A stretch of DNA of 64,000 nt from an uncultured Candidatus Saccharibacteria bacterium (GTDB lineage: Bacteria; Patescibacteriota; Minisyncoccia; Phycocordibacterales; UBA2100): the NCBI GenBank assembly GCA_964633425.1, contig CAZWFX010000006.1:4955-68954 (forward strand), given 5' to 3'. Under the pieces are notes generated by a model, which made no database searches, was not told the origin of the DNA, and saw only the letters and a list, made by a program, of their open reading frames with translations. The translations under genes were made by a program, and so were the position numbers. Of this stretch, positions 8,434 to 63,578 are shown piece after piece (position 1 is the stretch's first letter; the number at the start of each line of letters is the position of its first letter).

Positions 8434-8446
8434 CAATGATTCAAAG

Positions 8447-8468
8447 AAACGCCTTCGGGCGTTTTTTT
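8447..8468 (+). terminator. rho-independent terminator after tRNA-Ser
   Basis: AAACGCC-TTCG-GGCGTTT followed by a T run. Confidence 0.75.
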
Positions 8469-8556
8469 GATTCACCATTGCGAGCAAGGGGAAGAAACTC
8501 GAGCGTGAGCGGCGGAGGCTCCATCAGCAGATGGAGCGACTCGGACAGGTCCGAGA

Positions 8557-8584
8557 GGAGTGAGGAGTGAGGAGTGAGGAGCGA
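8557..8584 (+). repeat. 4 tandem heptads GGAGTGA GGAGTGA GGAGTGA GGAGCGA
   Basis: Read directly from sequence. Confidence 0.9.
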
Positions 8585-8627
8585 CGGCGACGAACGAGTG
8601 ATTGCCCGCATCTCTCTCTTCAAAAGG

Positions 8628-11059: not shown

Positions 11060-11065
11060 AATTGA

Positions 11066-12314: not shown

Positions 12315-12386
12315 GCTCCCGTCGTTCAACGGATAGGATGCATCCTTGCGGAGGATGTGATGTAGGTTCGATTCCTGCCGGGAGCA
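12315..12386 (+). tRNA. tRNA-Arg, anticodon read as GCG (hand fold), no encoded CCA
   Basis: Acceptor GCTCCCG/CGGGAGC, anticodon stem CATCC/GGATG with loop TTGCGGA, T arm GTAGG-TTCGATT-CCTGC. Confidence 0.8.
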
Positions 12387-12395
12387 CAATGCAAC

Positions 12396-12419
12396 AAAAT
12401 CTGCCGAAAGGCAGATTTT
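12396..12419. terminator. bidirectional terminator after tRNA-Arg
   Basis: AAAATCTGCC-GAAA-GGCAGATTTT. Confidence 0.7.
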
Positions 12420-12472
12420 GTCGTTGCACGACCGAGCAGAGTACCCGCGCGCTCTGCGTGCAGGAATCGAAC

Positions 12473-12550
12473 GTAGGAGCAATGTGAGGCCAACAGGCCG
12501 AGCAGCGAGGCGGGTTCGCGGAAATGCGTTTGCGACAGCAAATGCGCTAT
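12473..12550. repeat. structured intergenic element, divergent copy C
   Basis: GTAGGAGCAATGTG, GGCC-AACA-GGCC, GCGAGGCGGGTTCGCGG, GCGTTTGC-GACA-GCAAATGC. Collinear with copies A and B. Confidence 0.5.
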
Positions 12551-12569
12551 CCGTGACTGCACTGCTTTC

Positions 12570-19847: not shown

Positions 19848-19923
19848 GCGCTCATAGCTCAGTTGGTAGAGCAGCTCCCTTTTAAGGAGACGGTCCCAGG
19901 TTCAAATCCTGGTGGGCGCACCA
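19848..19923 (+). tRNA. tRNA-Lys (anticodon TTT), CCA encoded
   Basis: GCGCTCA..TGGGCGC acceptor, loop CTTTTAA, T arm CCAGG-TTCAAAT-CCTGG. TATAAA 11 nt upstream. Confidence 0.9.
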
Positions 19924-19927
19924 GATA

Positions 19928-20055
19928 GAAAAACAGCACCTGCGTGCTGTTTTTCTTTACTGGTGCGGGCCGGAGCGATGTCCCGCAAGCTTGCGGGACC
20001 GCGAGGCGGGGCCTGCGACCAAAACTTTGCGACGGCAAAGTTTTGAGTTGTGGGC
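19928..20055. repeat. structured intergenic element, copy A (terminator-like hairpin + two covarying hairpins + conserved linkers)
   Basis: See findings. Collinear with 62661-62786. Confidence 0.7.
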
Positions 20056-20210
20056 CACGTGTGCGAGCTGGAGGCGCGGCGACCGCGAGTCGGGGTCGCG
20101 GAATTTCGAGGCCGACGGGCCGAGAAATATCTGTGACACATGTTTATTACCCCGATAAACACCCCTCGCCTTTCCCTACCCGAGTGATACCGTCTCCGTG
20201 GAACCACTCA

Positions 20211-46436: not shown

Positions 46437-46673
46437 ACTTATTTAATTAAAGACTATTACTACTACTAGTGACTGGGATAACGGGATAACTCAGAAAGAG
46501 CTAGGAAATACGCGATAATTTCTGTCTCCGACACCCGTGGATAACTGCTGCGCGAGGACTGTGTCGTCTGTGGACGAACGTGCGTTGGAGAAGTACACCG
46601 TGCTATTCATTGAGACTTCATAGTGTTGTACCCTGCGTTCTTCCCCTGTTTGTGCAGGTGATATCCACATAGG
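46437..46673. other. dnaA-dnaN spacer with DnaA-box-like sites and AT-rich tract (possible second half of a bipartite oriC)
   Basis: CGTGGATAA 46536-46544 and ATATCCACA 46661-46669 (each 8/9 to TTATCCACA). AT-rich 46439-46470. Confidence 0.4.
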
Positions 46674-48038: not shown

Positions 48039-48218
48039 CGTCTATGCAGTGAGAACAATGCTCCGCATTATACGCACTTCGTGCTCGTATGGAATCTTGA
48101 CCGAGGGTCTCGGGGGTGTTCACAACTATGTGGATAACGCGGGGATATGTTTTTTTGCTCTCGTTGAATTTTTTTTCGCACGTTGCGTTTTTCATCTGCC
48201 TGTCGCATACTGCGCCGC
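48039..48218. other. putative oriC (dnaA-rpmH spacer)
   Basis: Perfect DnaA box TGTGGATAA at 48129-48137, followed by the T/A-rich tract TATGTTTTTTTGCTCTCGTTGAATTTTTTTT (48146-48176). Gene strand bias switches here. Confidence 0.6.
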
Positions 48219-48359
48219 ATGTCGACCAAGCGAACATATCAACCCAAGAAGCGAAAGCGTGTAAAGACGCACGGTTTCCGAGCGCGCACAAAGTCTGCGA
48301 CCGGTAAGGCCGTACTCGTCCGCCGCCGCCGCAAGGGCCGAGCGAAGCTCACGGTCTAA
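48219..48359 (+). CDS. rpmH: 50S ribosomal protein L34
   Basis: Below the ORF-track size cutoff. Hand translation: [46 protein letters not shown]. Confidence 0.9.
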
Positions 48360-48373
48360 GACCGTTCCTGGCC

Positions 48374-48700
48374 ATGCCTAAAAAGCAGCGGCTTACAGGG
48401 GGCGAAATTCGTCGCCTCAAACCTGAAAAAAGGCTTGTTTCAAGCCTTTTTTCGCTTTCGTATGCGCGCGATACGGGTGCCGGGAAGGCTGCGTGTGTAG
48501 TGTCTAAAAAGGTCTCCGTCCGCGCGGTCGACCGCAATACCGTGAAGCGTCGGATGCGAGCTGCTTTGCGGGCGCTCGCTCCCCTACCCCCGCATGTCTC
48601 TATGGTAATAGCCGCCAAGAAGGCGGTGACCGCGGTCTCGTACAAGGAGCTTCACACAGATCTCGAAGCGCTCATCGGACGCGTTCATAGCGGGAAATAA
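48374..48700 (+). CDS. rnpA: ribonuclease P protein component
   Basis: 108 aa, basic, KKVSVRAVDRNTVKRRMRAALR. Canonical position after rpmH. Confidence 0.85.
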   Translation: MPKKQRLTGGEIRRLKPEKRLVSSLFSLSYARDTGAGKAACVVSKKVSVRAVDRNTVKRRMRAALRALAPLPPHVSMVIAAKKAVTAVSYKELHTDLEALIGRVHSGK

Positions 48701-48727
48701 TCTCAGAGAGTACAATACGCGAACCAT

Positions 48728-49462
48728 ATGATCTCCTCAGCATTTCACGCGGCCGTGTATCTCCCGATCTATAACGCACTTGTCTACTTTGTCGACGTAG
48801 TGCCGACGCACGATATCGGCATCGCGGTCATCATCGTCACGATCATTGTGCGCCTGATCCTCTTCCCGCTTGCACGCCGGGCTATCAAGTCTCAGATGGC
48901 TATGAAGGCGGTTGCCCCAGAGATTGAGGAGCTTAAGAAAAAATACAAGGATAAGCCGGAAGAACAGGGTCGCGCTATGTTTGCGCTATACCGGGAGCGT
49001 AAGGTGAATCCGTTCTCAGGGTTCTTGCTCCTGTTGCTCCAGCTCCCAATCCTGCTCGGTCTCTACTGGGTATTCGCTCGTGGCGGGTTTCCGGTGGTAA
49101 AGCCGGAAATGCTCTATTCGTTCGTCGCGGTGCCGGAGGCAGTGAACATGCACTTCGTAGGCCTCATTGATATGGGAGGAAAAAGCATCCTTTTGGCCGT
49201 TTTAGTGGCTATAACACAGGCTATTTACACCCGTCTCTCCATGGGTCCTCAGGGCACCATAACCCAGACCGAAGCATCGTTCTCGGACGAAATGGCGAAG
49301 AGCTTCGATGTCCAGGCGCGTTACGTGCTGCCTGTCGTCATTGGAATCGTGTCCTACTTTGTTGCCGCCGCCGCACCGTTGTACTGGGTCACCAGCAACG
49401 TTTTTATGATCGGACAAGAGATTTTCGTCGGTCGCCGCTTTCACGGCCGTCACGTGCAGTAA
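48728..49462 (+). CDS. yidC: membrane protein insertase YidC (short form)
   Basis: ILFPL..KSQMAMKAVAPEIEELKKKYKD..NPFSGFLLLLLQLPIL. Confidence 0.85.
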   Translation: MISSAFHAAVYLPIYNALVYFVDVVPTHDIGIAVIIVTIIVRLILFPLARRAIKSQMAMKAVAPEIEELKKKYKDKPEEQGRAMFALYRERKVNPFSGFLLLLLQLPILLGLYWVFARGGFPVVKPEMLYSFVAVPEAVNMHFVGLIDMGGKSILLAVLVAITQAIYTRLSMGPQGTITQTEASFSDEMAKSFDVQARYVLPVVIGIVSYFVAAAAPLYWVTSNVFMIGQEIFVGRRFHGRHVQ

Positions 49463-51748: not shown

Positions 51749-52759
51749 TTATTTGCCGGTGAACGGGTCAACGCTCGCTCCGGATTGCGTGGAGCCGCCG
51801 AGTGTACCGAATGTCACGTTCCAGAGTCCGTGTGCGTCGAGACGGAAGTTTTTCTTATGAGTGAGCGACAGCTCTATGAGACCGACGCCGCCTTCCGCCC
51901 CGGCGTTGATTGTGAGCGTTGCCGGACGTTCTTTGTTGGCTTCTACGGGGGCCTTGTTCACACGCCAGATGTAGGTGAACTGTTTGTCGTTCGGACCGTC
52001 AGCAAATGCAAAGTACGGGATTGCAGTGAATGTCATTTCGGTGTCTCCGAGGGAGGTCTCGGCGGGCACCGCATTGTGATACATGGTTCCGTAGAGCGGA
52101 TGCTCGAAATACAACTGCGTCATTGGTACAACGGTTGCGATCGCTGCAGTACGGTCGGCGCCGAGCGTCCGGTCGGATGTCGTTACGCTGACGCTGATGG
52201 TGTTGGTTTGTGAAAATTCCGCAACCGGCACGCTGAGCGAGGTCTTTCCGCGTCCGCTCAAGAGCGTCTCCCCGCTCTGTGTCCATGTGTAGACGAGCTG
52301 CGACGCCGGGATCTCTACGCCATCCTTTGCAAAATGCGGCAATGCCTGCAGGGTGATCGAAGCGCCGAGGCTCGGAAGATGACGTCCGCGGTAGAGGCCC
52401 GGTGCGTAGGTATTTGCTTCCCAGAGCAGATCGACAGACAGCGGTATTATGGAAAGCGAAGCGTCGCCGTCCACGCCGTCCACGCGGACCGACATATCGG
52501 CACGCTCTCCGCTTTGCGGCGCCTTCATTTTGAATACAGTCTCACCCTCCCCTTCCGCAACAATAGTTCCGCTGTTGCGCCACGAGATCTGGCGCTGTGT
52601 AAGATCCATCACCGGGCTCTGTACCGTAAGTGTGACCGCTTCACCCGGGCGCGGGTACTGCGGCGTGACGGAAACGAACAACCTCGGTCCATTGAACAGC
52701 TCCTGTGCCGAAGCCGGAAGTGCAAGGAGCAACACGACGAGAAAGACGATGTACCTCAT
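51749..52759 (-). CDS. secreted protein (336 aa), Ig-like beta-rich
   Basis: Signal peptide MRYIVFLVVLLLALPASA. ATGA overlap with virB4. Confidence 0.5.
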   Translation of the reverse strand: MRYIVFLVVLLLALPASAQELFNGPRLFVSVTPQYPRPGEAVTLTVQSPVMDLTQRQISWRNSGTIVAEGEGETVFKMKAPQSGERADMSVRVDGVDGDASLSIIPLSVDLLWEANTYAPGLYRGRHLPSLGASITLQALPHFAKDGVEIPASQLVYTWTQSGETLLSGRGKTSLSVPVAEFSQTNTISVSVTTSDRTLGADRTAAIATVVPMTQLYFEHPLYGTMYHNAVPAETSLGDTEMTFTAIPYFAFADGPNDKQFTYIWRVNKAPVEANKERPATLTINAGAEGGVGLIELSLTHKKNFRLDAHGLWNVTFGTLGGSTQSGASVDPFTGK

Positions 52760-54708
52760 ACGATACCGGGAGCGACCGCAGGCTCTGCCGGCGAAGCCGG
52801 AGCCGGTGTTCCGCCGGTTTTCGGGAGCGCGGCTGCGGCGAGTGTTGCGGCTGCCTGCTGTGTCGCTTCGCGCTGTTCGTTGATCTGTGCGTCGGTCGAG
52901 TTTTGGAGGTCCTGTTTTGCCTTCTTGATGGCGAGAATCTGTGACGGGTCCGATGTGATGATCTGGTCTTCCGTATACGACGCGATAACCTTGATCGCGA
53001 CGTGCTTCAGTCCGGCAAAGAAGATTCCCTCACCCACATCCGATTCAAGCAGGAGGTATTTCTCTTCGTCAGAGAGCTTGAAGGTCTGCTGGACGAGGTC
53101 AACGGACGTCGGTGACTGTCGCAGGAGCATCTGGATCGATGAGTTTGTGATCATCGGTACACCGTAGGGTGAGTTCAAGAAGTCGGATACGTCCTGTGTG
53201 ATCGTCGAGATGCCGAGGAAGTATTTTCGTCCGCGCTTTGCGATCGAGAAGAGGAAGGATGCAGTGTCCTCGGATCGCATCATCCACCAGGCCTCGTCGA
53301 TGATGAGAAGTCGTTTGCGGAGCTCCTTTCGCACCGTGTTCCAAATGTGGTGCGTAATGATGTACATCGCCACCGGCTTGAGGTCGTCTTCCATGTCTCG
53401 GACTGAAAACACGACCAGTTTCTTGTTCATGTCGACGTTGGTCGGACGATTCATGAATCCGGACCATGTGCCCTTGGTGTACTTGGAGAGTCGCTGCACA
53501 AGCGACTCAGATCCGTCCATGCCGGAGAGCACGAGTTCGAAGTCGGAAAGGAGCGGCGGTTCGACGGCTGCAAAGTTCGCGTCCGCGGTAATGTCCTTCA
53601 GTGCGTAGGTCTCCGTAATGGCGCGGTCGATAACGGCATCCTCTTCAGGGGTCAGGCCGCCGAGCATGATGCGGAAGAGTCCGACGAGCGTGATGATGTT
53701 ATTACGAAGGACGTCCGACGGCGACTCGTCTTCGCGCGGAATCGGCAGGTCGAACGGGTTAATGTGGTGCTCCGACGAGAGCGAGATATTGAAGTATCGC
53801 CCGCCGACCGTTTCCGCGAGGTATTCGTACTCGCGTTCAGGGTCGATGACGATCACTTCAGTGTCGAACATGAGCGAGCGAAGAATCTCCAGCTTGGTGG
53901 TGTAGGACTTACCGGCACCGGATTTCGCGAAGGTAACGGAGTTGTAGTTCTCGAGCGAGAAACGGTCGAACAGAATGAGGGACGAGTTGTGGCGGTTGAT
54001 GCCGTAGAGAATGCCTCGATCCGAGGTTAGGTCGAATGAGATGAACGGAAAGATCGATGAGAGCGGAGCGGAGTTGAGCTTTGTGTGTACATCGAGCTCA
54101 TCGGTCGCGATCGGAAGAACAGATCGGAAGCCCTGCTCCTGCTGAAAGAGGGCCGGACGGATGTACACGAGTCGTGATTCAAGGACGGATCGGATTTCGC
54201 TTTCGGTCTTGTCGACTTGTTCACGCGTAGCGCCGTAGATTGTGAGGTACAAGCCGACGTCGAATATCTTTTCCTGAGCCTGCTGCAAAGAGTCGCGCAG
54301 CTGTTCGAGGTCGGAGTACGCGGTGTCGAGCATCGGGTCGCGCACCATCCCTTTCTCTTCGCGTGTCGAGATCTGGCTTTGTACTTCGGCCACTTTTTTC
54401 TGGAACTTTCGGAGCATTTCGTTGGTATCCATCGGGTGGATGAAGATCGAAATATCGAGCACCTTGTCCATGTTGATGATCGGCGCGAACCAGCCTGTTG
54501 TGAGGAATCGCGGGTACGAGATCACGAAGAAGGTTCGTGCAATCTTTTCCCCGAGGTCGAGCTCGTGCGACGAAATCTTGAGGGCGTGCGGTGCGATGAC
54601 ATCCTGGAGATCAAGTACGCCCGTCTGATAAATTTCCTCCGGCAGAACCGGGAGCACATTCGGCCCCTGCTCCTGCTTTTTTCCCAATAGTGAGTCGAAA
54701 AGTCCCAT
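52756..54708 (-). CDS. virB4: VirB4/TraC/TrbE-family type IV secretion ATPase
   Basis: FAKSGAGKSYTTK Walker A, LLIIDEAWWMM Walker B, and N-terminal VirB4 membrane-associated domain. ATG 54708 (track 54879). Confidence 0.85.
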   Translation of the reverse strand: MGLFDSLLGKKQEQGPNVLPVLPEEIYQTGVLDLQDVIAPHALKISSHELDLGEKIARTFFVISYPRFLTTGWFAPIINMDKVLDISIFIHPMDTNEMLRKFQKKVAEVQSQISTREEKGMVRDPMLDTAYSDLEQLRDSLQQAQEKIFDVGLYLTIYGATREQVDKTESEIRSVLESRLVYIRPALFQQEQGFRSVLPIATDELDVHTKLNSAPLSSIFPFISFDLTSDRGILYGINRHNSSLILFDRFSLENYNSVTFAKSGAGKSYTTKLEILRSLMFDTEVIVIDPEREYEYLAETVGGRYFNISLSSEHHINPFDLPIPREDESPSDVLRNNIITLVGLFRIMLGGLTPEEDAVIDRAITETYALKDITADANFAAVEPPLLSDFELVLSGMDGSESLVQRLSKYTKGTWSGFMNRPTNVDMNKKLVVFSVRDMEDDLKPVAMYIITHHIWNTVRKELRKRLLIIDEAWWMMRSEDTASFLFSIAKRGRKYFLGISTITQDVSDFLNSPYGVPMITNSSIQMLLRQSPTSVDLVQQTFKLSDEEKYLLLESDVGEGIFFAGLKHVAIKVIASYTEDQIITSDPSQILAIKKAKQDLQNSTDAQINEQREATQQAAATLAAAALPKTGGTPAPASPAEPAVAPGIV

Positions 54709-54709
54709 A

Positions 54710-55369
54710 TTATTGCTGTTCGAGCGACATCGGCTTAGAGTCCTCGCCCGGATTGAACATCTTGTACAACAGTTCGATCGCCTCTTCGGTACCGAGCTGC
54801 ACCGTGCGTACACCTGTTCGCACGAGTCCCTGCTGCACAATTGAGATGCGCTGCTCGAGCTGCGTAGCCTGCTCTTCAAAGGTACGGTTCTCTTCCGCAG
54901 CGTCAGTTTTCTTCTTCCCGAACGGGAAGATCGAGCCTCCGGAGCTTGTCTGAATAACAGCCGGCGTATACGGCACTACGATGAAGAAGTTCTTAGTCAT
55001 GATGTTGGCCGCCTCAGTGAAGCTTTTGATGAACTCGATGTATTCGCGGATCTGAATCCGCATCAGGTCATCGAGCTGGCCTTTATAGGCCTCTTCGAGT
55101 GTTGCGATGTAGGGGCGAATGTCGAGTTGTCGGGACTGCACGAAGATCTGGCATGAAAAGTCGAGTGAGTTCAGGAAGTTCTGAAATTGCACGATGAAGG
55201 CGGTCTGTTCGTCCTCGGACTTCAGTGCAAAGTTGATCGACGATGCGAGCAGGATCGCGCGCAGACCGTTGTCTTTCATGACCACGATACCGTCGCGCAC
55301 CTCCTTGATCGGCACGAACTCCTGTGTCGACTTGTTCTCGCTGCGCGTACTGTTCTGGGTCTGCGGCAT
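54710..55369 (-). CDS. stand-alone VirB4 N-terminal-domain-like protein
   Basis: FVPIKEVRDGIVVMKDNGLRAILLASSINFALKSEDEQTAFIVQFQNFLNSLDFSCQIFVQS parallels the N-terminus of Gram-positive-type VirB4 and of the adjacent virB4. Confidence 0.55.
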   Translation of the reverse strand: MPQTQNSTRSENKSTQEFVPIKEVRDGIVVMKDNGLRAILLASSINFALKSEDEQTAFIVQFQNFLNSLDFSCQIFVQSRQLDIRPYIATLEEAYKGQLDDLMRIQIREYIEFIKSFTEAANIMTKNFFIVVPYTPAVIQTSSGGSIFPFGKKKTDAAEENRTFEEQATQLEQRISIVQQGLVRTGVRTVQLGTEEAIELLYKMFNPGEDSKPMSLEQQ

Positions 55370-55371
55370 AG

Positions 55372-55878
55372 TTATTGTGTGAGTGCTTTCAGGGCTTCAC
55401 GAGGTGTACGGATGCCGCGTGCCATGTCTTCGCTTCGTACAGCATCGCGGTCACGCTCGTTACCTGTTCCGGCGGCGATACGCTCCTTGATGTCGAGACT
55501 CCAGGCCAGTTCGTGGAGTCTGCTGTCGTTGAGTCTCGGCACGTAGAGGTTCTCCTGCGGCATGAGTGGGTTCTTTTTTGCTTCAGCGATACGTTTTTTT
55601 GTCTTGTTGTTCCACAAGTAGAGCTTGGAGTGGATGAGATAGAAGAATGCGGTTTCAAGCGCGACCATGAAAGGGCGGCCGTTGTACTGCATGAACGCGA
55701 GCGCAACCGAGAAACCGACTACCATCATCGCGATCGGTGCCGCTATAAACGACGGGAGTAGTCGCCACACAAGGTATGCGAGACCTAATCCGCCCGCCAT
55801 GTAGACGAACTGTTTGAATGTGAACGGTCCGAAGATTTTATCTTCGACCTCAATGAATTGAGGTACCTGAAACTGCAT
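55372..55878 (-). CDS. PrgI/VirB3-like membrane protein
   Basis: MQFQVPQFIEVEDKIFGPFTFKQFVYMAGG followed by 2 TM, the PrgI-family pattern. Confidence 0.6.
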   Translation of the reverse strand: MQFQVPQFIEVEDKIFGPFTFKQFVYMAGGLGLAYLVWRLLPSFIAAPIAMMVVGFSVALAFMQYNGRPFMVALETAFFYLIHSKLYLWNNKTKKRIAEAKKNPLMPQENLYVPRLNDSRLHELAWSLDIKERIAAGTGNERDRDAVRSEDMARGIRTPREALKALTQ

Positions 55879-55886
55879 GCAGTATT

Positions 55887-55896
55887 AGTATACCCC
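55887..55896 (-). promoter_or_regulatory. GGGGTATACT promoter-like 10-mer, 8 nt upstream of ATG 55878
   Basis: Plus strand reads AGTATACCCC. Confidence 0.5.
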
Positions 55897-55951
55897 GCGT
55901 CGAACGCTGCCCGCTGCGCTTTTCACAGTCGTAACCGTGATGCGCGCGTAA

Positions 55952-56539
55952 TTACGACAGTTGTTCGCGGTACGGATCACCCTCGATACTTTTTCGTTCG
56001 TGACTTGCGCTCGCGCTGTATGTTTGCGGTATCTGGGCGCGCACTGCTTTTTCTTCCGGTGCGGGCGCCGGGGGTGTTGCAGGGACGACAGCCGGCGTGG
56101 GCGGCTCGACTGGTATGCCGACTTCGGGTGTATCCCCCGACGAGCCCTCTGCGTGGAGTGTTTCAGCTCGCAGAGTGTCGACGTCTGATATTGCCTGCTG
56201 CACTGCCGTCGGGTGACTGAGCGAGCGTTCCATTTCGCCGCGGATCGGCTTGAATACGATGTCTGAGACGCTCTGAGAAAGTTCGGTTGCGACCTCTGCC
56301 GTCACGTTGAGGTCTTTTTCGAGCCGGGTCGGCAACTCTGCGACCGGCTGGAAGCCAAGGAGCGTCAGCATTACGTTATTCTCGAGCACCTGCCACTGAT
56401 CAACGTGAAGTTTGTGACCTTCCGCGAGGTCGCGCATATGCTTTTGAACGTCTGCAGACGTTATTGCATCCTGGACGACCTTCGGGAGGGTTGCGAACCG
56501 CTCTGCAAACTGTGCCGACATGTCCTGTTCTGTGTCCAT
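55952..56539 (-). CDS. hypothetical cytoplasmic protein (195 aa)
   Basis: Helical N-terminal domain and P/A-rich tail. Embedded in the T4SS-like operon. Confidence 0.45.
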   Translation of the reverse strand: MDTEQDMSAQFAERFATLPKVVQDAITSADVQKHMRDLAEGHKLHVDQWQVLENNVMLTLLGFQPVAELPTRLEKDLNVTAEVATELSQSVSDIVFKPIRGEMERSLSHPTAVQQAISDVDTLRAETLHAEGSSGDTPEVGIPVEPPTPAVVPATPPAPAPEEKAVRAQIPQTYSASASHERKSIEGDPYREQLS

Positions 56540-56542
56540 ATA

Positions 56543-58861
56543 TTAGGTGGTTGTTCCGCTCGAGCCGCCGGATTTGAGCGAGGCCTGAATATCCTTAAAG
56601 ACGCTCGACGGTGAGTCTTTCTTCGTATACTTGGTGAACGACTTTTCGATGATGGCTTTGCCTACATCGCCTCCTTGCGCGTGGTGTGACGTTTCTTCTG
56701 CAAGGTGGCTGATACCGCTCTTGACCCCCTCCTCCGCCTTTTTGACGCGAGCCTCCAGCTTTTCTTTGATATCGCGCTGCATTTGCGACGAGACGGCATT
56801 TGCTTCCTTGCGCGCCTTGGTAACCAGGGTGTTCTTTTCGGCATGCGTTCGCTGTGCCGCTGCAAGTCGGGTCTGTGCATCGGTCTTCGGTCGGTCGATC
56901 TCGGCGTTGATGGTCGTAAGCTTCTGGTGTGCCTCCTTGATGCGCTGTGTTTCTTTGCCGAGCGCCTCCTGCTTCTCTGCGCGCGCTTTGACGAGTTCTT
57001 GCTGAGCCTTCTGGCGTTCTGCTGCTGCGAGCGTCTGATCGTTGGATCGGTGTTCGTGTTGTGCGATGACGCTGTCGTATCGCGTGTTGACGTCGCGCTG
57101 GTGTTCCTCGTGCGCCGCCTCCACTTCCTTGGTGACGGTCTCCACCTCGCCCTTCCGTGCATCGCGATTCGAATCTGCCTGTGCGCTTGCTGCGGCAAGT
57201 TCCTTCTCTGCCGTCTGCATGCTGTCGCGAGCGATCTCGAGTTCTTTCTCTGCTGCTTCCTTTGCCTTTGCCTTTGAGTCGGCTTCGTTGCCGTACTGCT
57301 TCGCAATTTCTTCTTCGGTCTCCTTCTTCATCTTTGCCTTGTCGTCGGCGGTCAGCGCCATCGCCTTTGCCTTTTCTTCGTTGTGTTCGGCGTGCGCATT
57401 CATGTTGCTAACAAAGCCACCCTTGGTCTCGCCCACGCCCTTGAGTCCGGCGCTGCCGGCGATCGCCTTGCCGAGTGCGGTGTTCATAAAGTTGTAGCTG
57501 CGGTCCGCCTTCTTCTCGAGTTCGGCCTTCTGCTTGCGGAGCTTATCGAATGCCGCCCAATCGCTCTTGAGGCCCGTTTCCATCGCCTTGCGCTTCGCCT
57601 TGTCGACGCCCTCGTTCATGTTCTGTGCACGACGCGCATTGTTCCAGCCGAGGGTTCGCTGACCGAGGCCCGCACCGAGGAGTGCTCCGCCGATCAGCGG
57701 GAGCCCGGCGGCCATTTGTCCCGCACGTACACCGCTGATCGATCCGGCGAGCGAGCTTGAGAGGCGGAATGATGCAAACAGCATGCCGGTGCCGATGATG
57801 TAGAGGAACAGAACACGCCACCCGTCGGCGAGTACCTGCTGCTGCGGCGCGTTCAAAAGTGCACCGAACGTATCGTTGCCGGTTACACGCAGCGACGCTT
57901 CCTGCATCACGAGGATCGAGATAGAGAGGAACACCATCAAAAGAGGTGCAAACGCTGCGTTGTTGATGAGTGACTTCCACCACGCGGTCCACCCGAAACG
58001 GCTCGCTTCGAAGTGCGGAGAGAGGTAGGTAGCGTACGCGATGGGTGCGGTAAGCATGAGGATGAAAAACCAGATCGCGCGCGCGATGATGAGAAATGCC
58101 CCGTAGAGGATCACGAGCGCGAGCGCTGAAAGAATGAAGAAGCCGAACAGTCCGAACAGGAAGGCTTTCATTGCTCCCCCGTCGGTCTGCTGTGCGACGC
58201 GAAGTGCAAGTGCGGATGTATCCCATACACCGGTTACGTGCAGTGGTGAGAGAATCTTGTCTGCGATCGAGAACTGAGGCACCGCGCCGCCGTTCGGTAC
58301 ACGGGCTGTTTGTGAGTAGATCGAGTACGCCATGAAGTTCGAGGCGTCGATAACAATCTTTGTGAACAAGAGACTGAAGTTCATCAAAACGGCGATCACG
58401 AGCACGCGAGCGATCATGCGCTTTTGGCCGTATTCCTTAAGACCGAGGATGAGACTGATCGCGATGAATACAAAGATGCCGATCATCAGTATGTTCGCGA
58501 TATCGCGGAAGAACGTCCATCCGCTGTTGATGATCGGGACCAACGACATCGAATCAAGCGTGTTCTTGAAGTCCATGATGGCGCGGTTCACGCCGAAATC
58601 GAATATCGATCCGGCGAATCGCAAAATACCTCCGCCCATCGAGAGCATTGCGGAACTCGCCCAGAGTGTGACGGGGACTGCAACGCAGCGCGCGAACTGG
58701 AAGTTGTACCAGCAGCCGCTGGGGTTCTGCAGGGCCTGACTTGCGTCTTTCGTGCCCCCTGCTGCGGCTTGCGCGAGCGCACTCTGAGGGATCAGGGTGA
58801 ACGCGAGCGTCACGATGATTGTGAGGAGTGCGATTGTCCAGGTTGTACGAGAGAGAGTCAT
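56543..58861 (-). CDS. VirB6/TrbL-like polytopic membrane protein with ~330-aa charged coiled-coil C-terminus
   Basis: Signal/TM then at least 7 TM segments. K/E/A-rich C-terminal tail. ATG 58861 (track 58918). Confidence 0.6.
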   Translation of the reverse strand: MTLSRTTWTIALLTIIVTLAFTLIPQSALAQAAAGGTKDASQALQNPSGCWYNFQFARCVAVPVTLWASSAMLSMGGGILRFAGSIFDFGVNRAIMDFKNTLDSMSLVPIINSGWTFFRDIANILMIGIFVFIAISLILGLKEYGQKRMIARVLVIAVLMNFSLLFTKIVIDASNFMAYSIYSQTARVPNGGAVPQFSIADKILSPLHVTGVWDTSALALRVAQQTDGGAMKAFLFGLFGFFILSALALVILYGAFLIIARAIWFFILMLTAPIAYATYLSPHFEASRFGWTAWWKSLINNAAFAPLLMVFLSISILVMQEASLRVTGNDTFGALLNAPQQQVLADGWRVLFLYIIGTGMLFASFRLSSSLAGSISGVRAGQMAAGLPLIGGALLGAGLGQRTLGWNNARRAQNMNEGVDKAKRKAMETGLKSDWAAFDKLRKQKAELEKKADRSYNFMNTALGKAIAGSAGLKGVGETKGGFVSNMNAHAEHNEEKAKAMALTADDKAKMKKETEEEIAKQYGNEADSKAKAKEAAEKELEIARDSMQTAEKELAAASAQADSNRDARKGEVETVTKEVEAAHEEHQRDVNTRYDSVIAQHEHRSNDQTLAAAERQKAQQELVKARAEKQEALGKETQRIKEAHQKLTTINAEIDRPKTDAQTRLAAAQRTHAEKNTLVTKARKEANAVSSQMQRDIKEKLEARVKKAEEGVKSGISHLAEETSHHAQGGDVGKAIIEKSFTKYTKKDSPSSVFKDIQASLKSGGSSGTTT

Positions 58862-58872
58862 ACAGGTGGTCG

Positions 58873-60462
58873 TTATAGTGCTTGCGGGCACGCCGCTCCG
58901 GACCAACATGCGGTCCATTCTTCTTTTACTGCCGGCGCCGCCGTCTCAGAGAGATTGCACCAACCCTTCACCGGGTCAGGGTCCTCTTTCCATTTCTTGA
59001 CCGCATTCTCGACGATTTTGGGCAGCATCTGCCTGAATGACTCGTACGTCGTGCTTTCGTTCGAGGCGCTGTGGAGCGTGATCGCGTTCAGTGCCGCCTG
59101 GGCGATCGTTTGCTGAGCGGCGGTCGGGTTTGCGATCAGGGCGTCGCGGACCAGCGTGATGGCTGTGATATTTGTATCGGCCGGACCGAGCTTCTGGGTT
59201 GTTGCGAGTGCGCTTGCACGGAAATTGTCTTCGATGACCTTCTGCGAGAACTTCGTTTCTTTGATGAACGTAAGCGTACCGCCGGCAGTCGCTGTGCACG
59301 ACGTCTCATTAATGGTGCCCGCCTGGCAAACCGCGTTCGCGATATCGGTGTAGCACTGGGCTTCCTGCGTTCGTAGCTCGGTGCTGTTCGTGCTGAAAAG
59401 CGCGATCGTGTCAGTGATTACCTTTTTATAGGCGGTTTCCTGCGCGATCGCGTTTCGCAGGAGATCGAGTGTAAAGTTGCCCGTCTGTGTGACAAGCGAG
59501 CCTCCAGCGGATTGTTTGACCTGCTCCATGTACGAAAGTGCGCCGCTGATCGCCTGGGTGATGGCTGAGAGTCCGCCCGTGCTTCCTGCTGTGCCGCCGG
59601 ATCCGCTGCCGAGTGTACCGCCGGTAAGCACCTGATTCGAGATACCGGCGTACAATCCTTCGGTCATCTCACCAATGTCGTCGGCTTCGCGTGCCTGAAC
59701 GTACCCGGACTGCACCGACTGAATACCGTTTGCGAGCACGATGGCGCCCGGCGTATCGGTCACATGGAAACCGTCTTCGTCGTAATGGAATACGTCGGTT
59801 ATACCCTGCCCCCAGTTGAGCCGTTCATGTTGTTTGTATAGCTCGTACGCGCTCTGCTGCTCAATGGCGTTGTATGCGAGTACCGATGCGGAAAACACAC
59901 TGCATGCCGGATTATCAGTGACTGCATCGAACGCATCCCAGTAGTTACCGCTCGGCGTGCCGCTGTAGACCTGGTTGAGGTCGCCTGTATATTTACATTC
60001 AAATCCGAGACGAGGGTCGCGGGCATAGTTATATGCCTGACCGATCCAGTTCTTTACCTTACCCTCGATCGTATCGTTGAAGTTCGAGAGCGAATCGTTG
60101 CGGAGGTATCGGTTGACGGTGCGGTCATTTAAAAACACATCTTCCTTACCCATTTCTCGCGACGGGTAACTGTTGAACTGTTTCAAAACTTCTGTGTCGA
60201 GTGCCGCAAGAGCTGCCTTGCGCTTCGCGGTTACGATCTCGCGCAGGACACATTCTTTATAGACAAGAAGCCCCGTGTTCAATTCAACCGCATAGTCGGC
60301 TACCGGAACGTACGGACCGCCGAGCGGTCGAGTGGATCCTGCACCAGTCGTCGCCTGTCCGCTTGTATTGCAGTTGTAAATATCGTCCGGTCCTGCGAGC
60401 GCAACAATCGGAGTGGCTCCGACGCAAAACGCGATGACCGCTAAGAGGATCGACTTTTTCAT
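58873..60462 (-). CDS. secreted protein (529 aa), no recognised domain
   Basis: Signal peptide MKKSILLAVIAFCVGATPIVALA. ATGA overlap with the upstream gene. Confidence 0.5.
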   Translation of the reverse strand: MKKSILLAVIAFCVGATPIVALAGPDDIYNCNTSGQATTGAGSTRPLGGPYVPVADYAVELNTGLLVYKECVLREIVTAKRKAALAALDTEVLKQFNSYPSREMGKEDVFLNDRTVNRYLRNDSLSNFNDTIEGKVKNWIGQAYNYARDPRLGFECKYTGDLNQVYSGTPSGNYWDAFDAVTDNPACSVFSASVLAYNAIEQQSAYELYKQHERLNWGQGITDVFHYDEDGFHVTDTPGAIVLANGIQSVQSGYVQAREADDIGEMTEGLYAGISNQVLTGGTLGSGSGGTAGSTGGLSAITQAISGALSYMEQVKQSAGGSLVTQTGNFTLDLLRNAIAQETAYKKVITDTIALFSTNSTELRTQEAQCYTDIANAVCQAGTINETSCTATAGGTLTFIKETKFSQKVIEDNFRASALATTQKLGPADTNITAITLVRDALIANPTAAQQTIAQAALNAITLHSASNESTTYESFRQMLPKIVENAVKKWKEDPDPVKGWCNLSETAAPAVKEEWTACWSGAACPQAL

Positions 60463-61304
60463 AGGGATTTTCGTGCGAACAATGATCGCATGCGGTCGAA
60501 GGAATCATAAATGCCCTGCTCTTTCTCGTTGTAGGTGCGCAAGAGTGCGACAGATGCATACGGGTCGTCGCCGTGGCTCACGAGTCCGTCGAGTACGGCA
60601 GCGAATGCGCGGAGAGAATTCAGCAGCTCCCGGTGATAGTTGATCGCGTCCTGCGGAACACGGATCTGTGCCCCCGCATCGGCCGATGCTCGGTACGCGG
60701 CAGCTGCGTCGGTCAGTTGTGTCAGGTATTTGGGATCACTCGTTTCGACGTAGTGGCCGTAGATCACATATTCGGCGCTCGGAATGCTTGAGAGCGGCTT
60801 GAGAGCCTCCTGTAACTGGTCGCGGTATACGCGCACTCGCTCGGCCGAGGAGTCCGGATCTATCGTGAAGTCGCTGTTCTCGAACGCGTCGTACGCGACC
60901 GCTGCTTTCATGCGCTCGGCGATACGTGCCGCAGCTTGGCGCAGGTCTTCTTTTGTGTAGTCCTGTCCGCTATCAAGAATGCGTGCGTACGTACCCAACA
61001 TCTCGCCCGCAATCATCGGTCCGATCAGCGACAAATGATCGTTGGTCGTCGTTGCATCGAGATCTGTCGAATCAGACATACCGAGGAGAACCATTGACTG
61101 CTGATCGAACGAATCGAGGGGTACCGGCGTGGTATCTGACGGTGTTGTAGCGTCTACAGCTGCGACTACCGCAGGTTCCGCCGGAGCCGGTCGCAGGGCA
61201 AGTGTTATACGGACAACCGAAACGCTCAGCAGCAGCGCAATCGACAAGAGTGCAGTCACTGCAATAGGAGAAAAGCCGCCGAATACCGCGCGTAATTTCT
61301 GCAC
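60459..61304 (-). CDS. bitopic membrane protein (short cytoplasmic N-terminus, 1 TM, ~230-aa external helical domain)
   Basis: Start proposed at GTG 61304, 6 nt after GGGGTATACT. The track start GTG 61349 is the alternative. Confidence 0.45.
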   Translation of the reverse strand: MQKLRAVFGGFSPIAVTALLSIALLLSVSVVRITLALRPAPAEPAVVAAVDATTPSDTTPVPLDSFDQQSMVLLGMSDSTDLDATTTNDHLSLIGPMIAGEMLGTYARILDSGQDYTKEDLRQAAARIAERMKAAVAYDAFENSDFTIDPDSSAERVRVYRDQLQEALKPLSSIPSAEYVIYGHYVETSDPKYLTQLTDAAAAYRASADAGAQIRVPQDAINYHRELLNSLRAFAAVLDGLVSHGDDPYASVALLRTYNEKEQGIYDSFDRMRSLFARKSL

Positions 61305-61310
61305 ACTAAA

Positions 61311-61320
61311 AGTATACCCC
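61311..61320 (-). promoter_or_regulatory. GGGGTATACT promoter-like 10-mer
   Basis: Plus strand reads AGTATACCCC. Confidence 0.45.
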
Positions 61321-61369
61321 AGTGAAACGGCGGCGCGTGGCTCAAACACGGGAAAAAATGGGATAGCAA

Positions 61370-62239
61370 TCAGTTTCTGCGGAAGCTGAACGCAGAACCG
61401 GCATCGGTCTCGTCGAACGTGACGTCGTGTGTAGAAAACAGATTCACCATGCCGACAAAAGCGAGGGTGAACGCGTCGGCCTTGTTGTTGTATGAGGTAA
61501 TAGCGCCGATGAACGCCTGGTCATCGCTTGCCCGCGGGACTGCAGCGAGTGCTGTTCCGAGGTTTACATATGAGTCCCCGAGCGCTTTATGGGCTGCTTC
61601 GGCGCTCACGGGTACATCGTGAAAGCTCAGGATACCCTCTCCGAGCGCTTTGTACCGGTTTCCGAGTTCGATAACGGCGTCCGCATAGGTTTTATTGTCA
61701 CGGTGGGTCGCTTGATTGACGACCGTTTGAGACATATTCGGGTTAACGGCCGCGAAAGCCTGTACCCTGCGACCGATTTCATTTCCATAGGCGAACAAGA
61801 GCTCCTGTTCCGGGGTGCGGGCGGGTGCGGCGGTCGCCTGCCTGCTCGGAACGAACGTGAACGCGCCGATTAGCTCTTCGTAGGTCTTTGCGGTCTGCGG
61901 ATGAGTGGGGGCCTCATCGTGTGCGAGTCGGGCAAGCAGTGCGTTGTAGTCAAATGACTCGTCACCTGGCTTTTCTATGATTTTTGCGGTCACGCCCGTG
62001 GACGGTTTCGGGATGACGAGCTTCTCGGGCGCAGGTTCCGAGGCGGTCTCCGGAATCTCATGCTCGGGCACTGTGGCTTCGGTGGTCGGTGTCGGTTCGA
62101 TGTATCCGTTCACTGTGTCCCATGAAGAATTGCTGCCGGTGGGGGCAACAGCTCGCTGGCGTTCGACGAAATACAGGCCTGCGAGGACGAGCACGAGCGC
62201 AGCAACGAGTGTAAGGAGGACCGGATGCCTCAAATTCAT
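61370..62239 (-). CDS. bitopic membrane protein, probable paralogue of 60459..61304
   Basis: MNLRHPVLLTLVAALVLVLAGLYF. ATG 62239 lies 6 nt after TATACT (track GTG 62245). Confidence 0.45.
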   Translation of the reverse strand: MNLRHPVLLTLVAALVLVLAGLYFVERQRAVAPTGSNSSWDTVNGYIEPTPTTEATVPEHEIPETASEPAPEKLVIPKPSTGVTAKIIEKPGDESFDYNALLARLAHDEAPTHPQTAKTYEELIGAFTFVPSRQATAAPARTPEQELLFAYGNEIGRRVQAFAAVNPNMSQTVVNQATHRDNKTYADAVIELGNRYKALGEGILSFHDVPVSAEAAHKALGDSYVNLGTALAAVPRASDDQAFIGAITSYNNKADAFTLAFVGMVNLFSTHDVTFDETDAGSAFSFRRN

Positions 62240-62245
62240 GATCAC

Positions 62246-62255
62246 AGTATACCCC
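62246..62255 (-). promoter_or_regulatory. GGGGTATACT promoter-like 10-mer at the head of the T4SS-like operon
   Basis: Plus strand reads AGTATACCCC. Confidence 0.5.
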
Positions 62256-62320
62256 GCAGCCTTTGTACGTATGCCACATATCCTCTTTTTGCGGGCGCAT
62301 CTCCTCGGGTCGAGGCGGGT

Positions 62321-62662
62321 ATGTCGTATACTTCATACATGCGTGCGATCGCAGGTACACTCGCGGGGATCATACTGCTTATGGCCCCTACCGCTGTAGT
62401 GGCACAAACGAACCCCTTCGGCGGACCGATCACGCAGATCATTTTTTGCTACAACCAGGCGATTTGGACGACCGTCGGCCCCCCGGTGGGAGGCATCTAT
62501 ATATGGACGCCCTCGACGGTTACATACCAGTTCGGACCGCCGGCACATGTGGGCCAGTACCTGCTCGGGCTCTACGGTGCCCCCTACTACTGCCTCGTAT
62601 CGATCGTTCCGATCATCGTGTTTGCAGGCATCTCCATAACCATGATGGGCAGTAGCCAATGA
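62321..62662 (+). CDS. small secreted/membrane protein (113 aa)
   Basis: Signal peptide AGTLAGIILLMAPTAVVA and C-terminal TM. GAGGCGGG upstream of ATG 62321. Confidence 0.45.
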   Translation: MSYTSYMRAIAGTLAGIILLMAPTAVVAQTNPFGGPITQIIFCYNQAIWTTVGPPVGGIYIWTPSTVTYQFGPPAHVGQYLLGLYGAPYYCLVSIVPIIVFAGISITMMGSSQ

Positions 62663-62786
62663 AAAAGAGTGCTTGAGCACTCTTTTTCTTTAGGCTACTG
62701 AGCCGGAGCGATGTCGCCAAAGCTTTGGCGACCGCGAGGCGGGGCCTGCGACCGAGTCGCGCGACGGCGCGACGAGAGTTGTGGGC
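62661..62786. repeat. structured intergenic element, copy B
   Basis: Collinear with 19928-20055. See findings. Confidence 0.7.
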
Positions 62787-62801
62787 GCAGTCAGTAAACT
62801 C

Positions 62802-63578
62802 CTACCCCACCAACGTCCTCGTGATGGTCTTCCAGCTTTCTATTCCGATATCCTCCGCCCGCGCTTTTTCTGAAATTCCTGTCTGCGCAAGTGCGGAAAG
62901 AGCCTTTTCTTTCCCGAACGTGACTGCAAGATTGTTCGCCACCATCTTTCGCTTCGAAGCAAAACCGGCGTGCGCGACTTTGAAAAAGCCCTCCTCTGTT
63001 ATGTCGCTGAAGAATTTTTTCGATACGTTGTCGATGACGAGGATCGCAGAATCCACGTTCGGTGCCGGAGAAAAATGTTTTGCGGGAACTTTATCCGTGA
63101 TGCGCGGCGTACCGTACGCCTTTATCGACAGTGAAAGCAGGCTTTCTTTTTTGGAAACGGCGCGTTGTGCGACTTCCTTTTGTACCAGGAGTGCGAGTGC
63201 GCGCGGCTGTACCGGTGCAGTCAGGAACTGCCGGATAATTTCCCCTGTTATGTAATACGGAATATTCGCTGCGACGACATACGACGAAAGCCCGAGCGAC
63301 TCTGCCGACACGTTACGGACGTCGTCTTCGACGAGTCGAAACGTTCCCGCAGCGATCTCGCTCGCGAACATTGCTTCAAGTTTCGGTATAAGCTCGGGAT
63401 CTTTCTCGACAGCGACCGTGCGCCCGAGTGTGAGCAACTCCTTCGTAAGGATGCCCTTGCCCGGACCGATCTCAAGGTAGGTCTCGCCGTCGTTCAATGG
63501 CACCGCGTGCGCAAGCGCCCGCGCTGCCCACGAGTGAATGAGAAAGTGTTGTCCGAGTTTTGCGCCGCCCCGCTTCAT
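62802..63578 (-). CDS. rsmA: 16S rRNA (adenine1518/1519-N6)-dimethyltransferase RsmA/KsgA
   Basis: LGQHFL, LEIGPGKGILT, ANIPYYITG. Confidence 0.88.
   Translation of the reverse strand: MKRGGAKLGQHFLIHSWAARALAHAVPLNDGETYLEIGPGKGILTKELLTLGRTVAVEKDPELIPKLEAMFASEIAAGTFRLVEDDVRNVSAESLGLSSYVVAANIPYYITGEIIRQFLTAPVQPRALALLVQKEVAQRAVSKKESLLSLSIKAYGTPRITDKVPAKHFSPAPNVDSAILVIDNVSKKFFSDITEEGFFKVAHAGFASKRKMVANNLAVTFGKEKALSALAQTGISEKARAEDIGIESWKTITRTLVG

Follow-up and report, generated by a model that had tools for sequence, protein, structure and literature searches.

A strand-specific three-hairpin cassette at gene 3' ends of Kaiserbacteria-type Patescibacteria, seen from a copy beside ksgA, and its possible role as a portable 3'-end module

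A structured element lies between the gene of a small secreted-type protein and the convergent ksgA gene in a 64,000-nucleotide (nt) stretch of contig CAZWFX010000006.1, which was assembled from an uncultured Candidatus Saccharibacteria bacterium (GCA_964633425.1); this whole stretch is called the window hereafter. An initial annotation of the window recorded the element at 62661-62786 as copy B, the second copy of a structured, covarying element whose other representative was named copy A. This holds, since copy B has the same blocks as copy A with compensatory changes in its stems, and the sequence blocks, the AGCT and GACG loops, and the palindrome centred on AAGCTT all read as the annotation describes them. 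The repeated unit is, however, larger than the element first described. It is a cassette of ~140-170 nt consisting of a terminator-like hairpin (H0), an arm (X), and two further hairpins (H1 and H2), and the H0 'terminator' with the bases around it, which the annotation had overlooked as a component, belongs to the unit. Such cassettes stand at the 3' ends of tRNA genes, tmRNA genes, and some protein genes in Kaiserbacteria-type Patescibacteria. No description of the cassette was found in the literature searched.

Copy B is interpreted here as a resident of an old, strand-specific family of three-hairpin cassettes that serves as a portable 3'-end module. Taken as a whole, this statement is given an even chance of being correct. 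The identity, strand, and insertion history of copy B, taken alone, are held with high confidence; the functional part, namely that the cassette is a portable 3'-end or terminator module, is tentative and falls somewhat short of an even chance. Patescibacteria form a large and poorly understood share of bacterial diversity and have very small genomes. Since a structured element is conserved in such tiny genomes at most sampled tRNA genes, at tmRNA, and at some essential protein genes, it is unlikely to be idle.

Fold and folding strand of the conserved core

A first alignment of eight sequences, made without a model, contained compensatory changes in 27 of 35 pairs. The covariance model built from it (R1) gave 33 matches in ksgA loci and the window and 115 in metagenome contigs. 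The metagenome sample consists of at least 120 stretches matched by a pattern derived from H2, and all metagenome figures rest on the matches listed. Paired cells make up 91.3% and 93.2% in two alignments, against 67-70% in shuffled ones and ~40% with slid partners; changes on both sides occur in 29 of 34 and 33 of 34 pairs of two model-fitted alignments, and every helix covaries. The counts from these later alignments are somewhat inflated by the fitting, and the model-free first alignment gives the same picture.

Several details of the core are conserved besides the pairing itself. H1 keeps a GGA/GA internal loop and an AU bulge, and the lower stem of H2 keeps a bulged A and two G.U pairs, the latter in 101 and 74 of 111 sequences. 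In the apical region of H2, beside the GC-GACG-GC tip, tandem G.A/A.G pairs are present in the majority of sequences (59-65 of ~100; alignment A5, columns 111/168 and 112/167), which suggests a specific recognition motif.

The model finds four units in the window, every one on the plus strand. In addition to copies A and B these are a third at 12470-12561 (copy C) and a short fourth at 20070-20141 (copy A2), both unlisted in the initial annotation. Copy B scores 83 bits (E ~1e-13), and its H1-H2 part folds with -55 kcal/mol. Copies A and B share a 20-mer that is present exactly twice in the window (0.05 expected) and form a 52-nt direct repeat of 88% identity; compared with shuffled sequences, the two copies fold on the plus strand with z scores of -5.2 and -6.0.

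Mismatches within the helices bear on the folding strand. On the plus strand, G.U is found 56 times against four A.C, and G.A 51 times against three C.U; when the two conserved G.U columns are left out, the first comparison is 28 against three. Therefore, the conserved fold is that of the plus strand, and it is antisense to ksgA. The minus strand of the copies folds less well. These results bear directly on the proposal of the initial annotation that the element forms the 3' untranslated region of ksgA in a minus-strand RNA ending in the terminator at 62687-62662. By position, a ksgA transcript must pass through the opposite strand of the element on its way to the symmetric hairpin, and copy C, too, has a convergent open reading frame (ORF) behind it. 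A minus-strand RNA would, however, hold A.C and C.U mismatches and fold worse. Furthermore, copy A has no convergent gene and is followed by a methyltransferase gene on the plus strand, and a convergent ORF comes next in only 22 of 91 units with a neighbour (a same-strand ORF, a tRNA, or another unit in 66). Since the orientation also tracks the upstream gene, this proposal was given up and is considered very improbable. The other possibility raised by the annotation, transcription of the plus strand past the terminator of the upstream gene, fits the data better, with the correction that this 'terminator of the upstream gene' is H0, a part of the cassette.

The orientation of the units agrees with transcription on a larger scale as well. 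The origin of replication appears to lie near 48 kb, where dnaA (46674-48038) and dnaN are on the minus strand, yidC is on the plus strand, and the cumulative GC skew has its minimum (these genes span 45339-49462). Copies C and A lie to the left of the origin and copy B to the right, and all three are on the plus strand, co-oriented with their upstream genes. Since the plus strand is used on both sides of the origin, orientation tracks transcription and not replication, which favours an RNA-level or transcription-linked role and disfavours elements that depend on the lagging-strand template.

An ATG at 62711 raises the question of a small peptide (M-S-P-K-L-W-R-P-R-G-G-A-C-D...). In copies A and B a GGAG stands 2 nt ahead of the ATG and the frames are open for 22-28 codons, and 72 of 117 cores have an ATG within their first 20 nt. 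However, the ATG is missing in 45 of the 117 cores, the core lengths are spread evenly over the three frames, and the substitutions compensate pairing instead of being synonymous. The peptide was rejected on these three grounds, and the spacing between GGAG and ATG is also too short; its probability is negligible.

Arms copied from the upstream gene and the range of host genes

H0 has recurrent features of its own. Its loop is CUGC in 61 of 141 units and CUUC in 12, and across the units a T run of at least four is found in 72% and an A run in 64%. Since the loops are conserved across units, H0 is assigned to the repeated unit. Between H0 and H1 lies arm X, 8-20 nt whose reverse complement is the terminal stretch of the upstream gene (segment T). 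Because X is complementary to T, the segments T, H0, and X make one long hairpin; at copy B, X lengthens H0 to a hairpin of ~23 bp. In the ksgA locus the lower T:X stem has 8-10 bp in 22 of 26 units and always starts 49-50 nt ahead of the core. As many as 26 distinct T/X versions occur there, and they track the last codons of the small-protein gene.

The same relation is seen at tRNA genes. In 67 non-redundant tRNA-linked units, with mismatched pairs as controls, X includes an inverted copy of at least 8 nt of the tRNA 3' end or trailer in 76% (controls 9%), and the sequence directly after H2, called Y, includes a direct copy of at least 8 nt of the gene end in 36% (controls 4%). A closing stem of at least 6 nt between X and Y is a weak signal, with 46% against 29%. 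The arms fall into two registers. In one class, 33 of 36 units have the 3' end of X paired to tRNA position 70, irrespective of an encoded CCA; in the second class, 16 of 19 units have it paired to U54, with which the T loop begins. Copy C belongs to the second class: the 13 nt of its X (GCAGGAATCGAAC, 12460-12472) are perfectly antisense to the segment of tRNA-Arg that comprises the T loop and the 3' strand of the T stem (12366-12378). Of 26 direct repeats, 14 have C56 of the T loop as their first base, and the repeats extend to the tRNA end plus 0-4 nt; the flanking direct repeats range in length from 6 to 86 nt.

Protein genes obey this rule too, on a larger scale. In locus L159 (element at 3018-3105, minus strand), H2 is followed by an 86-nt, ~80%-identical copy of the last codons and the stop of a topA-like gene, and X complements the beginning of this duplicated block. 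In L097 (5712-5802, plus strand), the cassette is likewise followed by a diverged duplicate of the C-terminal coding region of a topA-like gene, over 77 aligned positions; in both loci the topA-like gene was recognised by its C-terminal sequence only. The two duplicates probably represent one old insertion inherited by both lineages. Template and variable repeats of diversity-generating retroelements were considered for the topA-like duplicate and rejected, as the differences between the copies are, on inspection, not adenine-specific.

Other loci show the units in series. Partial tRNA ends stand between the units of the arrays in L157 and L164, and a whole unit is in perfect tandem duplication in L086. 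In L152, two 96%-identical units lie 1 kb apart (11030-11120 and 12084-12175, minus strand), both with arms derived from the tmRNA 3' end, and only one of them adjoins the tmRNA gene; the pair is the clearest sign of a recent copy event. After tRNA-Arg (cct) in L088 and after tRNA-Val in L094, an X-like and a Y-like arm are joined by GCC only (...TCGAAGCCCGATTGA...), which could be the footprint of H1-H2 loss or a minimal variant.

KsgA homologues assign the organism to Candidatus Kaiserbacteria-type Patescibacteria. The loci of relatives consist of uvrD-ksgA, a gap, the convergent small-protein gene, and then a type IV secretion-like cluster. Synteny of the small-protein gene, convergent with ksgA, is conserved in 56 of 81 related ksgA loci. 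The comparison of ksgA 3' regions suggested by the initial annotation bore it out as far as the recurrence of the element is concerned, which is present in 24 of these 56 loci. Many element-free ksgA loci have only 1-15 nt between the two genes and no terminator. Copy B is nearest to the orthologous units of L018 and L034 (identity 0.76), followed by copy A (0.72).

Since the ksgA loci contain too few tRNA genes to test a link with tRNA, a pattern scan of metagenomes was carried out. Altogether, 71 of 148 model matches lie at most 120 nt after a co-oriented tRNA of any anticodon (median 46 nt), and a further 16 lie within 400 nt of one, mostly as second units of arrays. Units that follow a tRNA are co-oriented with it in 87 cases and opposite in one, and ~76% of the metagenome units, among the matches listed, come after a co-oriented tRNA. 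In ten cases the next tRNA is found 9-60 nt past H2, so that the unit is itself the inter-tRNA spacer there. Units also follow tmRNA genes in five loci (L095, L099, L105, L152, and L160) and protein genes, i.e. the topA-like gene (L159 and L097), rpsI (L146), dnaJ (L118), and a histidine kinase gene (L114). Many tRNAs that were scored as element-free bear variants outside the reach of the model, such as H1 only or X-Y only, and nearly all tRNAs in the sampled loci have some variant of the cassette; short-H1, H1-only, and decayed variants are common. In L163 (6100-6190) and L156 (250-330), cassettes stand behind tRNA-like 3' ends that received no ARAGORN call. These ends may belong to intron-interrupted tRNA genes, which have been reported for Patescibacteria (PMC13011429).

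Proposed insertion history and function, and rival explanations

The mean identity among units is ~62%, and copies within a contig and between contigs have nearly the same value (0.63 versus 0.62). At the ksgA site, the unit is recognisable down to ~52% KsgA identity. The divergence, together with the persistence at the ksgA site, indicates a family that is old and held in place, with no active burst; the units are footprints of old duplicative insertions, now kept in place.

A proposed history of copy B can be described as follows. The small-protein gene and ksgA would originally have abutted each other. A duplicative insertion ~12 nt ahead of the small-protein stop would then have delivered a cassette with a new gene end, H0, X, H1, and H2, and the original gene end would have been left as Y against ksgA. 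Within Y, a relic TAA (62795-62797) stands at a distance of 4 nt from the stop of ksgA, and Y is similar, in a short, degenerate match, to the gene ends in the relatives L004 and L008 (GCAGTTCTCAGTAAC). The sequence is suggestive of an original gene end displaced by the insertion, and the empty loci with gaps of 1-15 nt back this reading of Y. As the relic is short, we infer the insertion step at copy B only with reserve.

The function proposed for the module begins with H0. At copy B, a G+C-rich stem-loop is followed by a U tract, as in an intrinsic terminator, and the hairpin has both an A and a T tract, so that termination is possible in either direction. H0 would end the transcription of the upstream gene and, being symmetric, also that of a convergent neighbour such as ksgA; the module would in this way supply a bidirectional terminator between genes that otherwise nearly touch. 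A consensus terminator scan did not have H0 of copy B among its calls, probably since the T run was counted as part of the stem. No promoter-like site was seen near copy B, and a plus-strand RNA would therefore come from read-through of H0. In such an RNA, X would clamp the gene end into a hairpin of at least 20 bp, and H1-H2 would form a stable block that caps, insulates, or protects the RNA or marks it for processing. The element would thus be made as a trailer of the upstream gene, not as the 3' untranslated region of ksgA. Since streamlined genomes are expected to drop a useless 150-nt insert, a host-level function of H1-H2 appears likely.

Several points weigh against this interpretation. 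At copy B, the relic assigned to Y is a short, degenerate sequence, and no insertion enzyme was found nearby, neither in the flanks of 80 loci nor among the scanned genes of the window. Transcription of H1-H2 is presumed, and with H0 as an efficient terminator it would seldom extend to X, H1, and H2, which would make their conservation hard to explain. No single processing register suits tRNA, tmRNA, and mRNA hosts alike. Moreover, G.T and G.A mismatches are tolerated in single-stranded DNA too, and the strand signal is thus no proof of RNA. The T:X stem, unlike H1 and H2, is nearly all Watson-Crick with rare and symmetric mismatches (six G.U and six A.C), a pattern that may fit a DNA-level palindrome process as well as selection.

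The main rival explanation is a selfish, non-autonomous insertion element, whose H1-H2 (and H0) would be recognised by a trans-acting recombinase, transposase, or reverse transcriptase acting on plus-strand single-stranded DNA or RNA. X would be matched to the target or templated by it, and the effect on termination would be incidental. This explanation accounts for inverted and direct repeats derived from the target, for junctions at the T loop and the 3' end of tRNA genes, which are the classical sublocations used by integrases, and for the preference for tRNA and tmRNA. It also accounts for the tandem arrays in which partial tRNA ends separate the units (L157, L164, and L086), for the 96%-identical pair in L152 with one unit off the tmRNA yet with tmRNA-derived flanks, and for the patchy occurrence at the ksgA site. 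A conserved structure of variable sequence and strict strand is, in addition, typical of folded single-strand recombination sites. On the other hand, no integrase, transposase, or reverse transcriptase recurs near the 80 loci, and none is present among the Pfam-scanned neighbours in the window. No recurrent ORF family of any kind, as expected of a protein gene travelling with the element, was found around these loci, and viral contigs gave no match to the H2 pattern. The copies are old and ~62% identical, without bursts of near-identical copies; the ksgA-site unit keeps its blocks and structure down to the KsgA identity given above, where decay would be expected without host-level selection; and the orientation is independent of the replication strand. 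A selfish element is possible and, on balance, rather unlikely. It is not mutually exclusive with a 3'-end module. A new kind of small genetic element can also be envisaged, a three-hairpin cassette that homes to gene 3' ends (of tRNA, tmRNA, and others) by using or templating an antisense arm copied from the target, duplicates the gene end on insertion, delivers a terminator, and then becomes maintained in the 3'-end formation of transcripts in genome-reduced Patescibacteria. This scheme is more speculative and is regarded as unlikely. In a more radical version, the RNA of H1-H2 could itself be catalytic, or recruit a nuclease, and in this way shape tRNA and tmRNA 3' ends.

Two other RNA-level explanations were weighed against the 3'-end module. 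In the first, ~90-nt H1-H2 RNAs are freed from read-through or precursor transcripts of strongly expressed genes and act in trans as small RNAs, with the T:X-H0 hairpin as the processing site (e.g. for RNase III) and the conserved loops binding protein or RNA. The conserved GGA/GA loop, AU bulge, GACG loop, two G.U pairs, and majority tandem G.A near the H2 loop are in its favour, as are the very stable folds and the location behind strongly expressed genes and between operon tRNAs (9-60 nt to the next). A trans-acting RNA would, however, be unusual in having dozens of diverged copies in each lineage and stems that are hypervariable, the units are without a promoter or terminator of their own, the reduced and decayed variants are common, and X and Y are left unexplained. 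It is considered improbable.

The second is a cis-acting device for the maturation of tRNA and tmRNA 3' ends, composed either of a guide arm with a ribozyme-like or nuclease-recruiting module or of an X:Y mimic of the acceptor and T arm. The fixed register of X at tRNA position 70, independent of an encoded CCA, agrees with such a device, and so does the presence of some variant on nearly all tRNAs of the sampled loci; in L119, L126, and L096 the X:Y helix can equal the acceptor and T stems, with H1-H2 replacing the T loop. At protein-gene ends, however, cleavage in that register would cut off the stop codon, and the U54-register class would need the tRNA to unfold. Y decays in old copies, and no known ribozyme family of Rfam was matched. 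This device appears less probable still than the small RNAs.

Among the known systems, REP/BIME sequences (repetitive extragenic palindromes and bacterial interspersed mosaic elements), integrative elements, Correia-type MITEs (miniature inverted-repeat transposable elements), and recombination sites each fail at least one of the defining features tested. The cassette is best filed with structured intergenic repeats and insertion elements, and its target-copied architecture is unusual. REP/BIME sequences of enterobacteria are multi-copy, oriented hairpins at gene 3' ends or between convergent genes, mosaic or tandem, which persist at fixed loci; stabilisation of mRNA 3' ends and termination have been proposed as their roles. 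They are defined by palindromes of 20-40 nt, a conserved 5' tetranucleotide of the GTAG type, and the RAYT transposase. The cassette is likewise multi-copy and strand-oriented, with hairpins at gene ends in mosaic or tandem arrangement. It differs in having three distinct hairpins with CUGC, AGCN, and GACG loops, a conserved core of ~90 nt, a preference for tRNA and tmRNA ends, a reverse-complement arm, and a duplicate of the gene end. Its hairpins are ~40-45 nt each and lack a GTAG-type motif, and the flanks examined contain no RAYT-type gene.

Integrative elements with tyrosine integrases target the 3' part of tRNA, tmRNA, and housekeeping genes. The cassette resembles them in a direct repeat of the gene 3' part that begins either inside the T loop or at the 3' end, in keeping the target gene intact by a replacement end, in tmRNA and rpsI-type targets, and in tandem accretion. 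It is, however, only ~150 nt as a whole and without an integrase or any other gene; it has an inverted copy of the target (X), and its interior shows RNA-type covariation instead of protein-binding arm sites. Correia-type MITEs of Neisseria are co-transcribed, form hairpins, can terminate transcription, and have fixed terminal inverted repeats and a TA duplication. The cassette, too, is a small non-coding insertion near gene ends with long hairpins able to affect termination or processing, whereas its flanking repeats, unlike those of Correia and classical MITEs, are copied from each target (6-86 nt), and its copies are old and diverged.

With the folded attC sites of integrons and the attP site of the CTX phage, the cassette shares a conserved structure, variable sequence, strand specificity, and mismatches on one strand. 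Integron attC sites have the core sites R'' (RYYYAAC) and R' (GTTRRRY) and stand in a cassette array with intI. The blocks AGTTGTGGGC and ATCTGTGAC fail GTTRRRY, there is no cassette array or integron integrase, and, in contrast to folded recombination sites, the orientation follows transcription and not the lagging-strand template. Hairpins derived from IS200/IS605 elements, which are oriented by the lagging-strand template and go with TnpA or TnpB in the genome, differ in this respect as well, given that the three window loci on both sides of the dnaA-linked origin are all on the plus strand. An intrinsic terminator is resembled by H0 with its G+C-rich stem, A and U tracts, position right behind the gene, and possible action in both directions; the differences are that 8-20 bp, among them the final nucleotides of the gene, are added to its stem, that its loop is conserved over unrelated loci, and that two more conserved hairpins follow.

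Retrons, whose non-coding RNA has a reverse transcriptase gene directly behind it, differ in that the genes behind the cassettes are ksgA, a methyltransferase gene, and an ORF without a Pfam family, with no reverse transcriptase gene and no recurrent family. In Rfam 15, only tRNAs reach the gathering thresholds over the whole window, and scans by E value around copies A and B and a unit of L138 gave chance-level matches only, such as KDPG-aldolase RNA (19.9 bits, with the threshold at 54.6) and, on H0, hairpin models of miRNAs. Domains V/VI of group II introns and the K-turn were considered for H1 and H2 and rejected, because neither the sides of the bulges nor the sizes of the loops agree and no Rfam intron was matched. 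TIGR systems consist of 36-nt units with 9-nt spacers, form arrays beside genes with a Nop domain, and have been found in parasitic bacteria (PMC12045711). As in TIGR and the bridge RNA of IS110, the guide-like segments of the cassette match both strands of the target (PMC12045711), whereas X and Y of the cassette both span one target segment and pair with one another, and no protein gene is associated with them.

If the portable terminator or 3'-end module is real, it would show where the terminators between near-touching genes of such genomes come from and by what means RNA genes with strong expression are shielded from adjacent genes. Should the cassette be mobile instead, the inverted and direct arms copied from its target would point to an insertion mechanism undescribed for bacteria, which acts at the tRNA positions that integrases use. 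For annotators, the covariance model offers a way to account for many 'long intergenic' stretches, and it gives a clear target for mapping of metatranscriptomes. Several of the loci (L102, L107, L109, L118, L124, L136, L163, and L164) stem from groundwater wells of the Hainich, and metatranscriptomes are reported for these wells (PMC12960796).

Copies and neighbouring genes in the window

The coordinates of copy B, its neighbours, and the other copies are collected in Table 1.

Table 1. Features of the ksgA-side cassette and of the other copies in the window
Feature	Position	Strand	Basis or remark
Small secreted-type protein gene, 113 aa	62321..62662	+	ORF; 'host' gene of copy B
T segment CAGTAGCC	62650..62657	+	last codons of the small-protein gene; pairs with arm X
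H0, terminator-like hairpin AAAAAGAGTGC-TTGA-GCACTCTTTTT with A and T tracts	62662..62687		sequence and fold
Arm X GGCTACTG	62693..62700	+	reverse complement of T; abuts H1
H1, GCC-GGA-GCG-AU-(8-bp variable stem, AGCU loop)-CGC-GA-GGC	62702..62740	+	fold, covariation
Block GCCGGAGCGAT	62702-62712	+	sequence
Palindrome GTCGCCAAAGCTTTGGCGAC, AAGCTT centre, 20 bp	62713-62732	+	sequence
20-nt linker CGCGAGGCGGGGCCTGCGAC	62733-62752	+	sequence
H2, long hairpin, variable upper stem, GACG loop	62744..62786	+	fold, covariation
GACG loop	62763-62766	+	sequence; loop of H2
Block AGTTGTGGGC	62777-62786	+	15 nt short of the ksgA stop
Y GCAGTCAGTAAAC, candidate decayed direct copy of the small-protein gene end	62787..62799	+	sequence
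ksgA/rsmA	62802..63578	-	ORF call; convergent neighbour, outside the element
Copy A unit	19918..20058	+	95.9 bits; H1-H2 core 19966-20058
Copy A core, blocks as in copy B	19969-20055	+	shared blocks, different stems
Copy A T, tRNA-Lys 3' end GCACCAG	19918-19924	+	sequence
Copy A H0, CUGC loop	19928-19955	+	fold
Copy A arm X CTGGTGC	19960-19966	+	sequence
Copy A2, tandem short-H1 unit after copy A, common H2 type (GGTCGCGGAA...ATCTGTGAC)	20070..20141	+	43 bits
Copy C unit, after tRNA-Arg	12366..12561	+	core 12470-12561, 49.8 bits
Decayed unit after tRNA-Ser (probable)	8435..8620	+	weak model matches only

Both the tRNA-Arg and the tRNA-Lys of the window have a unit directly after them. The probable decayed unit behind tRNA-Ser includes a long hairpin with the tRNA-Ser end, a hairpin similar to H1, the motif GC-GACG-GC, and a microsatellite of three to four GAGGAGT repeats. 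With replication starting near 48 kb, transcription of the tRNA genes at 8-20 kb would run head-on to it. Another tRNA gene at 22379-22493 (plus strand; Rfam, 54 bits) has a 45-nt insertion in its anticodon loop and received no ARAGORN call; this length is below that of a group I intron, and the gene has no cassette behind it. A prophage or island between copies A and B, which lie 42.7 kb apart, was rejected, since the interval consists of housekeeping genes including polA, ruvB, bacA, a PilB-type ATPase gene, dnaA, and dnaN.

The gene calls of the initial annotation on either side of copy B, the small plus-strand ORF and the minus-strand ksgA with its stop at 62802, both stand; a database protein 100% identical to the product of the ksgA ORF bears the Pfam domain RrnaAD. 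The 113 codons of the small-protein gene end in a TGA stop, and no Pfam family was matched by its product. This gene is the last one of a conserved cluster resembling a type IV secretion system (52756-62662), in which a VirB4/TraG-type ATPase is encoded at 52756-54879 and PrgI- and TraC-like genes were recognised by synteny with L001. The 113-aa secreted-type protein could be a pilin-like subunit.

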